From Escherichia coli (GTDB taxonomy: Bacteria; Pseudomonadota; Gammaproteobacteria; Enterobacterales; Enterobacteriaceae): 64,000 bases of DNA. The position numbers were made by a program, and so were the translations under genes. This document shows positions 2,918-12,787 of this stretch, piece after piece. Within the stretch, counting starts at the first letter, position 1. Each line of letters opens with the position of its first letter. The notes beneath the pieces were generated by a model, which was given only the letters and a program-made list of their open reading frames with translations, did no database searches and was not told the origin of the DNA. Location of the stretch: assembly GCF_001677475.2 (NCBI RefSeq), contig NZ_CP015229.1; one strand, given 5' to 3'.

Positions 2918-3961
2918 TTAACGGGTGATCCACAACGTGGGCCAGGCGTCTGGCCCATGCCAGTTATCGCAGGTGGGTTCTGCGGCGTAACGCACCAGGC
3001 GAAAACGCTGACCGTCAAAGCGCCAGCGCGCCTGAATGCCACAATCGCTTAATCCGCGCCCTTTCGCTAAGGTCACCAGTTCACGCGATTTCTCATCAAA
3101 TGTTGCGTTCATCAGTTCCAGTTCATTCGTCTCCTGACCGTTGTTGAACGGCAAACGCAACCGAACCGGGCGCGAGGCCAGCGGCTTTTTACGCGACACA
3201 ATCCATGCCAAATCAATGGTGTTATAGGCCCCTGCCTCACAGCTAATCATCATCAGCGCTTTATCATCAGTCAGCGCAGTGACATTCACCTCACGACGCA
3301 ATGGATCAAGCGAGCAGCGCAGACCATTCATCCGCCAGTTTCCATAATCCAGCAAATCGTTGCGTTCTTCGAGTGAGAGTGGCGTCGGCGTTGGGTTAAC
3401 CACCACAACCTCTTTCAGCGCAGGCGCGGGCGGTACGCTGAGCGGCGGTTCGTCCCCTTTCTTGATCCAGGCGGTTTCACTGCCAACGCGCTTTTGCTGA
3501 GCATCAATAAACAACAACGCCGCTTTTAAGCCGCTCAGAGAAATGGTCTGATTGCCGTCGCGTAAGGTGATCGCCTTCCCTTCCTGAATTATCTGCAAAA
3601 ACGCGGTGATGGTTGCCGTATCATCGGTTACTAATAACCATGGTGAAATCCGCCACTTGTCACCACTTAACGCCAACGGCTCACCATCTAACAGCAGCCG
3701 TGGCGCTATCTCCCCTTCAGACGCATCCGGCGACTTCAACCCGCCGCGCTCAATACGTAAAACGGCATCAGTATGCGCCCCGGCGCTGCGGCTCAGGGTC
3801 ATCACCAGTCCATTATGATCGCCCGTATTGCGCGCCACACAAAAATTTTGATTATTACAGGTGACCTGCCAGTCGGAAAACGCCTGTTGCGCTGGTGCCG
3901 CCCACACCAAAGACGTCGGCAACAAAGCGAAAAAAAAGAGAAGGAAAATGCGATAGCGCAT
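2918..3961 (-). CDS. ypfG: DUF1176 periplasmic protein YpfG
   Basis: 347-aa ORF with N-terminal signal peptide (MRYRIFLLFFFALLPTSLVWA); K-12 position and length. Confidence 0.88.
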   Translation of the reverse strand: MRYRIFLLFFFALLPTSLVWAAPAQQAFSDWQVTCNNQNFCVARNTGDHNGLVMTLSRSAGAHTDAVLRIERGGLKSPDASEGEIAPRLLLDGEPLALSGDKWRISPWLLVTDDTATITAFLQIIQEGKAITLRDGNQTISLSGLKAALLFIDAQQKRVGSETAWIKKGDEPPLSVPPAPALKEVVVVNPTPTPLSLEERNDLLDYGNWRMNGLRCSLDPLRREVNVTALTDDKALMMISCEAGAYNTIDLAWIVSRKKPLASRPVRLRLPFNNGQETNELELMNATFDEKSRELVTLAKGRGLSDCGIQARWRFDGQRFRLVRYAAEPTCDNWHGPDAWPTLWITR

Positions 3962-8778: not shown

Positions 8779-11700
8779 ATGGCGAATTTCTTTATTGATC
8801 GCCCCATTTTTGCCTGGGTGCTGGCAATCCTGTTGTGTCTGACAGGTACCCTGGCGATTTTTTCATTGCCCGTTGAACAATACCCCGATCTCGCGCCACC
8901 GAATGTGCGAGTGACCGCTAACTATCCCGGCGCATCGGCCCAGACGCTGGAAAACACCGTGACCCAGGTTATCGAGCAAAATATGACCGGCCTCGATAAT
9001 CTGATGTATATGTCGTCTCAGAGCAGTGGTACCGGTCAGGCATCTGTCACTTTAAGTTTTAAAGCAGGCACCGATCCGGACGAAGCCGTGCAGCAAGTAC
9101 AAAACCAGCTGCAATCAGCCATGCGAAAGTTACCGCAGGCGGTGCAAAATCAGGGCGTGACGGTGCGTAAAACCGGCGATACCAACATTCTGACCATTGC
9201 CTTCGTCTCTACCGATGGTTCGATGGATAAACAGGATATTGCTGATTATGTTGCCAGTAATATTCAGGACCCGTTAAGCCGCGTGAATGGCGTCGGGGAT
9301 ATCGATGCCTATGGTTCGCAATATTCCATGCGTATCTGGCTGGACCCGGCGAAACTCAACAGTTTCCAGATGACGGCTAAAGATGTCACTGATGCCATTG
9401 AGTCACAGAACGCGCAGATTGCGGTTGGGCAACTTGGTGGTACACCTTCCGTCGATAAGCAGGCGCTCAACGCCACCATTAACGCCCAGTCACTGCTGCA
9501 AACACCAGAACAGTTCCGCGATATCACCTTGCGGGTGAATCAGGACGGCTCAGAGGTAAGGCTGGGCGATGTCGCCACCGTCGAAATGGGGGCGGAGAAA
9601 TACGATTATCTTAGCCGCTTCAATGGTAAACCAGCCTCCGGGCTGGGGGTAAAACTGGCCTCCGGCGCGAACGAAATGGCGACAGCGGAGCTGGTACTCA
9701 ATCGTCTCGACGAGCTGGCGCAGTATTTTCCACACGGACTGGAATACAAGGTGGCGTATGAAACCACCTCGTTTGTTAAAGCCTCCATTGAAGACGTGGT
9801 GAAAACGCTGCTGGAAGCTATCGCCCTGGTTTTCCTCGTTATGTATCTGTTCCTGCAAAACTTCCGCGCCACGCTGATACCCACTATCGCCGTGCCGGTG
9901 GTGTTGATGGGAACCTTCTCCGTACTATACGCCTTCGGTTACAGCGTCAACACATTAACCATGTTCGCGATGGTGCTGGCGATCGGTCTGCTGGTGGATG
10001 ATGCCATCGTGGTGGTGGAAAACGTCGAACGTATTATGAGTGAGGAAGGACTCACTCCTCGCGAAGCCACACGTAAATCGATGGGGCAGATCCAAGGGGC
10101 ACTAGTCGGGATTGCGATGGTTCTTTCGGCGGTATTTGTACCAATGGCCTTCTTCGGCGGCACCACCGGTGCCATCTATCGCCAGTTCTCTATTACCATT
10201 GTTGCGGCGATGGTGCTGTCTGTACTGGTAGCGATGATCCTCACTCCGGCTCTGTGTGCCACGCTACTTAAGCCACTGAAAAAAGGTGAGCATCACGGGC
10301 AAAAAGGCTTTTTTGCCTGGTTTAACCAGATGTTTAACCGCAACGCCGAACGCTACGAAAAAGGGGTGGCGAAAATTCTCCATCGTAGCCTGCGCTGGAT
10401 TGTGATTTATGTCCTGTTGCTTGGCGGCATGGTGTTCCTGTTCCTGCGTTTGCCGACGTCGTTCTTACCGCTGGAAGACCGGGGCATGTTTACTACCTCG
10501 GTACAATTGCCCAGCGGTTCAACCCAACAACAGACCCTGAAAGTCGTTGAGCAAATCGAGAAATATTACTTCACCCATGAAAAAGACAACATCATGTCGG
10601 TGTTTGCCACCGTTGGCTCTGGCCCTGGGGGCAACGGGCAAAACGTGGCGCGAATGTTTATCCGCCTGAAAGACTGGAGCGAACGCGACAGTAAGACCGG
10701 CACCTCATTTGCCATTATTGAACGTGCAACGAAGGCGTTTAACAAGATTAAAGAAGCTCGCGTTATCGCCAGCAGCCCGCCAGCAATTAGCGGTCTTGGC
10801 AGTTCTGCGGGTTTTGATATGGAGTTGCAGGACCACGCTGGAGCGGGTCACGATGCGCTGATGGCAGCACGTAACCAGTTGCTGGCGCTGGCGGCGGAAA
10901 ACCCGGAGCTAACCCGTGTGCGCCATAACGGCCTCGACGACAGTCCGCAGTTGCAGATTGATATCGACCAGCGTAAAGCTCAGGCGCTGGGCGTTGCTAT
11001 CGACGATATTAACGACACACTGCAAACCGCCTGGGGTTCGAGCTATGTGAATGACTTTATGGATCGCGGTCGCGTGAAGAAAGTCTATGTGCAGGCAGCT
11101 GCGCCGTATCGCATGCTGCCAGATGACATTAATCTCTGGTATGTCCGAAATAAAGATGGCGGCATGGTGCCCTTCTCTGCTTTCGCGACCTCACGCTGGG
11201 AGACAGGCTCACCGCGTCTGGAACGCTATAACGGTTATTCTGCGGTTGAGATTGTTGGGGAAGCCGCACCGGGGGTCAGTACCGGTACGGCGATGGATAT
11301 TATGGAATCGTTAGTGAAGCAGCTGCCAAACGGCTTTGGTCTGGAGTGGACGGCGATGTCGTATCAGGAGCGGCTTTCCGGCGCGCAGGCTCCGGCGCTG
11401 TACGCCATTTCCTTGCTGGTGGTATTCCTGTGTCTGGCGGCGCTGTATGAAAGCTGGTCGGTGCCGTTCTCGGTAATGCTGGTCGTGCCGCTGGGGGTTA
11501 TCGGCGCGCTGCTGGCAACCTGGATGCGCGGGCTGGAAAACGACGTTTACTTCCAGGTGGGCCTGTTAACGGTCATTGGTTTATCGGCGAAAAACGCCAT
11601 CCTGATCGTCGAGTTTGCTAACGAGATGAACCAAAAAGGCCACGACCTGTTTGAAGCGACGCTCCACGCCTGCCGTCAGCGTTTACGCCCGATTCTGATG

Positions 11701-11892
11701 ACCTCGCTGGCATTTATCTTCGGCGTATTGCCAATGGCAACCAGCACGGGTGCCGGTTCCGGTGGTCAGCATGCGGTGGGTACTGGCGTAATGGGCGGGA
11801 TGATTTCGGCCACTATTCTGGCTATTTACTTCGTGCCGCTGTTCTTTGTGCTGGTGCGCCGCCGCTTCCCGCTGAAGCCGCGCCCGGAATAA
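8779..11892 (+). CDS. acrD: RND-family aminoglycoside efflux pump AcrD
   Basis: 1037-aa ORF, 12-TM RND transporter ([19 protein letters not shown]...); K-12 length. Confidence 0.95.
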
Positions 11893-11896
11893 GCAA

Positions 11897-11930
11897 TAAA
11901 AAAGGCGACATGCCAATGTGTCGCCTTTTT
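11897..11930. terminator. bidirectional intrinsic terminator (acrD / ypfM)
   Basis: A-tract, GC stem ggcgaca/tgtcgcc, then T-tract (aaaaaaggcgacatgccaatgtgtcgccttttt). Confidence 0.75.
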
Positions 11931-11990
11931 CAACTTTCCGATTAAGAACCTGCTCAGCGGGTTCTTGCTGTTTGTACTTTGTCTCAGGAA

Positions 11991-12050
11991 TTACTTACGA
12001 AGCATAACTTCGATAAAGTCTTTCCAGTTCCCCAGTTCACGTTCAATCAT
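11991..12050 (-). CDS. ypfM: 19-aa small protein YpfM
   Basis: Minus-strand ATG at 12050 preceded by AGAGAGG RBS; translation MIERELGNWKDFIEVMLRK then TAA; not in the ORF track because of size. Confidence 0.8.
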   Translation of the reverse strand: MIERELGNWKDFIEVMLRK

Positions 12051-12412
12051 AACAACCTCTCTTATAATTATGGGTATTCTACGGAAACAATATACCGTGG
12101 TGAAGCTAATTTACTCGATTGCTGCGATGACTACCTCCGGGGGACAAACCTTATGTAAATACTATGGTCCTGCGGTGATGATTTGTATGTGATACACAGC
12201 AACATTTCGAGATATTCATACGGCATCTAATACTTATTTAATTCTGGTTAAAATACAGACAGATAACAAGATGAATATTCTTAATGTTTACGTTAAAAAT
12301 GTTTAATATTATTTAATAGTTGTTAATTTGAATACTTCAATAATGTTATATTTCCTGATAATCATTTGCAGGCAAAATGTTTTCACTCTTAAATGAGTAT
12401 TTATTCTCATAA

Positions 12413-12787
<375 letters not shown>

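Follow-up and report, generated by a model that had tools for sequence, protein, structure and literature searches.

The window analyzed here, a 64,000-nt stretch of Escherichia coli DNA (contig NZ_CP015229.1), contains the small gene ypfM, which is flanked by acrD and yffB and oriented opposite to the two, just as it is in K-12 (Table 1). We found that translation of the (−) strand from 12050 to 11991 yields MIERELGNWKDFIEVMLRK-stop (19 codons plus TAA), which is the 19-codon gene that an earlier reading of the letters alone (hereafter, the sequence-only reading) had placed at this site. The codons are ATG ATT GAA CGT GAA CTG GGG AAC TGG AAA GAC TTT ATC GAA GTT ATG CTT CGT AAG TAA. On the same strand, the bases immediately 5′ of the start codon at 12050 read AAGAGAGGTTGTT-ATG, and the region preceding the ATG reads TAATTATAAGAGAGGTTGTT. 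The sequence-only reading had described the ribosome-binding site as AGAGAGG-N6-ATG; the motif and the ATG were borne out, but the spacer proved to be 5 nt (TTGTT) rather than 6, a trivial error. In the 64-kb window we found a single AGAGAGG-N5-ATG, compared with 0.06 occurrences expected from shuffled sequences.

Table 1. Features of the acrD-ypfM-yffB interval in window coordinates.
Feature	Position	Strand	Basis or conservation
acrD	8779..11892	+	
Bidirectional intrinsic terminator, common to ypfM (−) and acrD (+)	11897..11932	.	stem conserved, loop variable
3′ UTR spacer	11933..11990	−	low sequence conservation across 70 taxa
ypfM coding sequence	11991..12050	−	translation, RefSeq, NCBIfam, K-12 identity, conservation, published mass spectrometry
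Shine-Dalgarno AGAGAGG	12056..12062	−	5 nt from ATG
−10 hexamer TAGAAT	12076..12081	−	conserved across 70 aligned taxa; 17-bp spacing to TTCACC
−35 hexamer TTCACC	12099..12104	−	lone sigma-70-like match in 11700-12600; bases each kept in 70-99% of 70 aligned taxa
yffB	12431..12787	+	

The surroundings of the gene also agree with that earlier description, which had set it between the acrD terminator and an AT-rich, promoter-like region: ypfM is flanked by the acrD stop codon (11892) with its hairpin terminator (11932..11897) on one side and by a stretch of 24–35% G+C (12100–12400) on the other. The gene is indeed missing from the list of open reading frames (ORFs), as had been noticed, because its product has 19 aa and the tool reports a minimum of 20 aa; the list instead shows an unrelated, out-of-frame 20-aa ORF with a TTG start at 11984..12046. 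Thus, ypfM serves as a reminder that length cut-offs in ORF tracks drop real genes.

Comparison with annotated genomes revealed that RefSeq labels this place "ypfM: protein YpfM" (WP_001386977.1), between acrD and yffB, and that the counterpart in K-12 MG1655 is b4606, "uncharacterized protein YpfM" (YP_001165325.1). Over 561 aligned bases, the window and MG1655 differ at only four positions, all far upstream in the spacer, such that the promoter, leader, Shine-Dalgarno sequence, ORF, peptide, 3′ UTR, terminator, and position are the same as those of b4606. The peptide, submitted with one extra N-terminal residue to reach a 20-aa minimum, matches the NCBIfam equivalog family NF033843 (small_YpfM) over profile positions 1–19 of 19 with 59.2 bits (E = 2.4e-16; cut-off, 33), and its placement and orientation relative to acrD and yffB are those of the K-12 gene. 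We therefore regard it as virtually certain that the feature is the already annotated ypfM and its product YpfM, the name under which the sequence-only reading had listed it. The gene is not new: it was predicted in early screens for small RNAs (sRNAs), RefSeq includes it, and mass spectrometry has detected its product.

Within the species, the 601 bases around the ORF are present in 5,425 of 5,426 complete E. coli genomes, with a median of one place per genome and no repeat copies of ypfM. An 82-base query consisting of the leader and the ORF was matched at ≥99% identity (in practice, identically) in 4,783 records and at 95–99% in a further 642. Two E. coli records stood out, namely NZ_CP098217.1 (H4) and NZ_CP148398.1 (H20): one of these strains carries an IS200/IS605 tnpA within the acrD-yffB interval, and in the other only 59% of the leader-plus-ORF query was matched, which suggests a disrupted copy. 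Separately, a locus labelled Escherichia coli SCPM-O-B-8794 (L002, 2969–3857) has a ypfM-yffB spacer only 84% identical to that of the window and a YffB differing at 12 of 118 residues, with an identical YpfM peptide; it looks like a divergent Escherichia lineage.

Next to the coding sequence, we identified the elements of a complete transcription unit. The promoter hexamers listed in Table 1 coincide with a published result, since genomic SELEX lists TTCACC-17-TAGAAT as a constitutive RpoD promoter for ypfM, and the same study puts H-NS in the ypfM-yffB spacer (PMC3946193). From the usual spacing after a −10 hexamer, transcription would start at ~12071–12068, giving a leader of ~18–21 nt. Either AAGAGAGG or its GAGG core occurs at equal spacing from the start codon in nearly all of the 77 copies of ypfM that we compared (described below). 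Downstream of the ORF, the terminator has a core stem of GGCGACA/TGTCGCC (11925–11919 and 11910–11904), followed by a T-run for ypfM (11903–11898); on the 5′ side of the stem lies an A-run (11930–11926), which, read on the other strand, is the T-run of acrD, and the terminator is therefore bidirectional. A hairpin followed by a T-run was found at 65 of 74 loci, at a median distance of 93 nt past the ypfM stop codon (range, 54–128 nt), and its stems covary among species (e.g., GGCGAC/GTCGCC, GGCGGC/GCCGCC, and GGCAGC/GCTGCC). Across the 70 aligned taxa, conservation extends to the promoter hexamers, the Shine-Dalgarno sequence, and the terminator stem but not to the 3′ UTR. This arrangement points to a stand-alone, single-gene unit with a predicted transcript of ~175 nt in E. 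coli, of which ~90 nt would be 3′ UTR.

As for RNA structure, RNAalifold returned 0 consensus pairs in the 5′ UTR and ORF. The single-sequence fold of the whole transcript had a z-score of −2.85, which is carried by the terminator and by an 11-bp hairpin in the 3′ UTR (11967..11943 on the (−) strand; AAGAACCCGC...GCAGGTTCTT) that is identical in MG1655 and has poorly conserved bases over the 70 taxa. The terminator region (11898–11931) also gave partial Rfam matches to the terminator ends of CsrC and Ysr186 (E ~0.003), which fall far short of the gathering scores and most likely reflect a chance likeness between terminators.

Inspection by eye of the conserved blocks in the promoter region against the consensus sequences for CRP, PurR, Cra, and MntR gave no convincing fit. 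One block, at 12183–12214, is conserved over 37 genomes and lies just upstream of the yffB −35 hexamer (TTCATA, (+) strand, ~12218–12223); it contains a short palindrome, TGTGTATCACA, without a convincing match among the consensus sequences considered, and may be a regulator site for yffB-dapE. A second short conserved block, AAATATAACA on the (−) strand (12344–12353), lies inside the otherwise variable, AT-rich yffB leader.

A 19-codon ORF is, by size alone, within what chance produces (112 ORFs of ≥20 aa lie wholly or partly in the 7 kb around it), and it is conservation that lifts ypfM above chance. We sampled 80 species-level genomes of Enterobacterales, which were fetched through the neighboring YffB protein, making the sample unbiased by ypfM itself. 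At 75 of the 80 loci, which range from Escherichia and Citrobacter through Yersinia, Erwinia, and Dickeya, yffB is preceded by a ypfM homologue in the reverse orientation. Together with the window and the RefSeq E. coli locus, these loci provide 77 copies, of which 74 have an ATG start and exactly 19 codons. The stop codon itself varies (TAA, 51; TGA, 22; TAG, 4) with the length fixed, indicating that the position of the end is maintained rather than its bases. The three departures in length that we recorded are in Lelliottia nimipressuralis, where the stop codon was lost and the product extends to 30 aa (L032, ~3022–3111), in Erwinia psidii, with 25 aa and a divergent C-terminus (L077, ~179–253), and in Yersinia nurmii, with 20 aa owing to one additional Ala (L072, ~1898–1957).

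Conservation of the 19 codons was among the checks that the sequence-only reading had proposed, and substitution counts came out in favor of a coding gene. Specifically, Fitch parsimony changes were counted on a neighbor-joining tree built from yffB and dapE (71 taxa), and the number of changes per site at codon positions 1, 2, and 3 was 1.63, 1.74, and 7.05 for ypfM, compared with 5.3, 4.0, and 16.3 for yffB and 1.8, 0.9, and 15.5 for dapE. Positions 1 and 2 of ypfM underwent 64 changes in all; codons 4, 8, and 15 account for 39 of these and synonymous first-position changes in Leu codons for another 15, leaving about ten for the remaining 14 codons. At the protein level, 15 of the 19 residues are nearly invariant, and residues 4, 8, 11, and 15 vary among species. 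We conclude from these comparative data that ypfM is a genuine gene whose amino acid sequence has been kept across the Enterobacterales by purifying selection.

We also examined whether the neighbors of ypfM point to a partner. The gene lies 75–260 nt from the acrD stop codon in almost all genomes, Erwinia included; in Erwinia, ypfM adjoins acrD and yffB is ~3 kb away through insertions. In Dickeya, the divergent ypfM-yffB pair is kept with no acrD nearby, and the five of 80 loci without ypfM are also without acrD at that place. Accordingly, neither adjacency is obligatory for ypfM, the synteny is ancestral rather than informative and singles out no partner, and the absence of ypfM from the locus in five lineages indicates that it is dispensable at least there.

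The interval has been remodeled in several genomes. In Enterobacter sp. CC120223-11 (L053, 105–3164), the acrD-ypfM segment upstream of yffB is replaced by two paralogous ORFs of 114–120 aa that start with MPNIKDLNFDEIALVSGG, a double-glycine leader as in microcins, each paired with a membrane ORF of ~215 aa. In Enterobacteriaceae bacterium RIT691 (L068, 800–3411), acrD and ypfM are absent, and yffB is preceded by three tandem paralogues of ~270 aa (MARNNHKLPPVTAEELAEIER...). In Erwinia piriflorinigrans (L074, 1186–2787), a 533-aa ORF with a hydrophobic C-terminal region separates ypfM from yffB, and ypfM still adjoins acrD.

YpfM carrying an SPA tag has reportedly been seen by western blot. 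A proteomics study from 2025 recovered YpfM by top-down mass spectrometry with 100% coverage and the formyl-Met retained, and also detected it by DIA and by PRM, in the latter case in all replicates only in M63 minimal medium with low Mn2+; the proteome survey of Schmidt et al. is cited there as detecting YpfM too (PMC12529367). Because the K-12 gene is identical to that of the window, these published spectra establish that the ypfM ORF is translated and that an intact, formylated 19-residue peptide accumulates in cells. The retained formyl group fits a chain that is too short to exit the ribosomal tunnel before release. Our literature search for a function of YpfM returned no assignment, consistent with what the sequence-only reading had said. 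We considered ypfM as the cause of a reported multicopy suppression linked to dapE, since the plasmids also carry ypfM, and rejected it: the authors credit dapE, and ypfM appears to be a passenger.

Analysis of the peptide revealed an amphipathic pattern. YpfM has 19 residues, eight of them charged, and a GRAVY score of −0.43; its hydrophobic moment has a sharp maximum of 0.55 at 100 degrees per residue (P = 0.024 relative to shuffled sequences). When the residues are placed on a helical wheel, one contiguous 160-degree arc is occupied by M1, F12, M16, W9, I2, I13, L6, and L17, whereas K10, E3, E14, G7, and R18 form a conserved polar strip in which i/i+4 pairs could form salt bridges, and the variable positions 4, 8, 11, and 15 make up a contiguous stripe at 280–340 degrees. 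Such a distribution would be typical of a short amphipathic helix with most of its surface buried against another surface and a single stripe facing the solvent. Searches with YpfM against PDB sequences (E up to 10), Pfam, and PADLOC were all empty.

AlphaFold2 modeled YpfM as one continuous helix in both constructs that we submitted, i.e., a YffB-(G4S)6 linker-YpfM fusion with a paired alignment of 29 species and a four-copy YpfM tandem. The fusion showed no confident docking of the peptide on YffB (pLDDT of ~45 for the peptide and ~90 for YffB) and the tandem no confident bundle (pLDDT of 50–60, pTM of 0.40), both being weak negatives read without contact or PAE output. Given the low pLDDT in both models, the helix itself is predicted with low confidence.

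On these grounds, we propose that YpfM would fold into a soluble, amphipathic alpha-helix that has too few residues and too many charges to cross a membrane, and that its working surface would consist of the hydrophobic face (M1, I2, L6, W9, F12, I13, M16, and L17) and the charged strip (E3, K10, E14, and R18), with residues 4, 8, 11, and 15 forming an exposed stripe that is free to vary. Like other bacterial micro-proteins, it would dock on a larger protein, or possibly on the membrane interface, and modulate it. Because the variable residues lie on one face of the predicted helix, the conserved hydrophobic face most likely binds a larger partner, and because the peptide is roughly net-neutral with several acidic residues, binding to a protein seems likelier than binding to an anionic membrane surface. 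That the peptide is the functional product of ypfM is, in our judgment, probable when all lines of evidence are combined; that it binds and modulates a larger partner, a narrower claim drawn from the residue pattern, has about an even chance of being right. The map of conserved and variable helix faces points to the residues worth mutating or cross-linking.

One feature of the gene fits a purely protein-level explanation less well. Among codons for conserved amino acids in ypfM, we counted 82 third-position synonymous changes against 179 expected, i.e., about half, the expectation being taken from yffB and dapE codons for matching amino acids on the tree described above; none of 100,000 draws was as low (empirical P < 1e-5). 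The shortfall is most pronounced in codons 2–10 (29 vs 92 expected), where GAA5 is invariant in 71 of 71 copies, AAA10 is kept in 70 of 71, and even GGG7, a non-preferred codon for Gly7, is kept in 65 of 69. Since the flanking 3′ UTR varies freely, the shortfall cannot be put down to a low local mutation rate. With its synonymous sites constrained, the peptide may not be the sole selected product of the gene, and this excess constraint, which may be a novel point, argues for separating peptide from RNA in any genetic test.

Dual-function RNAs have precedents in SgrS/SgrT and AzuCR/AzuC, and the constraint on GGG7 and on codons 2–10 in general raises the alternative that the nucleotide-invariant codons 4–10 (GAACGTGAACTGGGGAACTGGAAAGA, window 12020–12041) are selected at the RNA level besides encoding YpfM, for example as part of an Hfq-dependent base-pairing RNA, a sponge, or a protein-binding site. 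If true, this would account for the slowed synonymous change relative to the neighboring genes. The stretch would be accessible, as no structure is predicted for the 5′ UTR and ORF in any of the species. The Rfam family of Hfq-binding RNAs STnc250 (RF01409) aligns at ypfM over the full model (1–94; window 12011..11892; E = 1.9e-5), but it scores 37.5 bits, short of the gathering score of 42, owing to divergence of the 3′ UTR spacer, which corresponds to the middle of the model. On the other side, the 3′ UTR, which is the usual seed site of 3′-derived sRNAs, is unconserved, and many of the invariant codons (GAA, AAA, AAC, CGT, and CTG) are preferred E. coli codons. Much of the constraint could thus stem from codon bias combined with a requirement that the initiation region of a very short ORF stay open. 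The Salmonella transcript was enriched fourfold in an Hfq co-immunoprecipitation, but this corresponds to 24 vs 6 reads and is weak (PMC2515195). On balance, we consider a second, RNA-level function unlikely, albeit the most probable of the alternatives to the view that the peptide is the functional product.

Much less probable is that ypfM acts in cis, i.e., that its translation matters, e.g., for termination or for read-through antisense into acrD, with a functionless peptide. Its size is typical of leader peptides (MgtL has 17 aa), MgtL and TnaC appear in the same mass spectrometry data set as YpfM (PMC12529367), and ypfM is convergent with acrD, only ~100 nt from the acrD stop codon in nearly all genomes. 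However, no same-strand gene follows ypfM, the next features being the strong, conserved terminator 54–128 nt past its stop and then the convergent acrD, and RNAalifold found no conserved alternative hairpin or attenuator in the 5′ UTR and ORF. Nor would attenuation require 15 of 19 residues to be nearly invariant in a helix-face pattern. Dickeya, moreover, keeps ypfM without acrD, and the peptide accumulates to detectable levels.

A small toxin of a type I toxin-antitoxin pair is slightly less probable still. The Ibs toxins are of similar size (18–19 aa), and that size, together with the original discovery of ypfM in sRNA screens, is all that favors such a reading; Ibs-like toxins, however, are hydrophobic, membrane-inserting peptides with an overlapping antisense RNA, whereas YpfM is not hydrophobic, as its GRAVY score and eight charged residues show, no opposite-strand promoter-like site was found between 11700 and 12600, there are no repeat copies, expression is driven by a constitutive promoter, and growing cells contain detectable peptide.

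Finally, the idea that ypfM is a chance ORF, or that the conserved signal belongs to an antisense (+)-strand ORF of 75 aa with a TTG start (11965..12192), has a negligible probability and was rejected: although, within the 57-nt overlap, 76 of 76 taxa have no stop codon in the antisense frame that shares third positions with ypfM, such that codon periodicity alone cannot separate the strands, beyond the overlap its first ATG is offset by −122 to +106 (with several taxa lacking any ATG), its stop-to-stop length ranges from 30 to 168 codons, and neither its stop nor its flanking residues are conserved, as expected of a shadow of ypfM, which itself has a fixed ATG, Shine-Dalgarno sequence, and length and a peptide seen by mass spectrometry.

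With the peptide retained as the probable product, ypfM can be compared with three known systems. The first is STnc250 of Salmonella, a stable, growth-phase-regulated RNA of ~220 nt that, according to its discoverers, contains the ypfM ORF (PMC2515195). It comes from the orthologous locus between acrD and yffB, but the Rfam model is limited to the 3′ 94 nt, with the last five codons at one end and the terminator at the other, and the ypfM transcript is an mRNA, not a proven regulatory RNA. The second is AcrZ (49 aa), the small partner of the RND pump AcrB, which comes to mind because ypfM adjoins the RND gene acrD in almost all genomes. However, AcrZ is a transmembrane helix and, like MgtS and CydX, belongs to a class defined by a hydrophobic transmembrane helix of ~20 residues, whereas YpfM is too short to span a membrane and has charges spread along an amphipathic chain. 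In addition, ypfM is convergent with acrD rather than co-transcribed with it, and Dickeya has ypfM without acrD.

The third system is AzuC, reportedly a 28-aa amphipathic small protein encoded by the dual-function RNA AzuCR, with GlpD as its partner and known RNA targets (Raina et al. 2022). The two share no sequence similarity, and the analogy is one of function only; both are very small, amphipathic, and non-transmembrane, and the RNAs of both were first found in an sRNA screen. Furthermore, the proteomics study that reported YpfM (PMC12529367) found AzuC, too, by PRM only when minimal medium was low in Mn2+.
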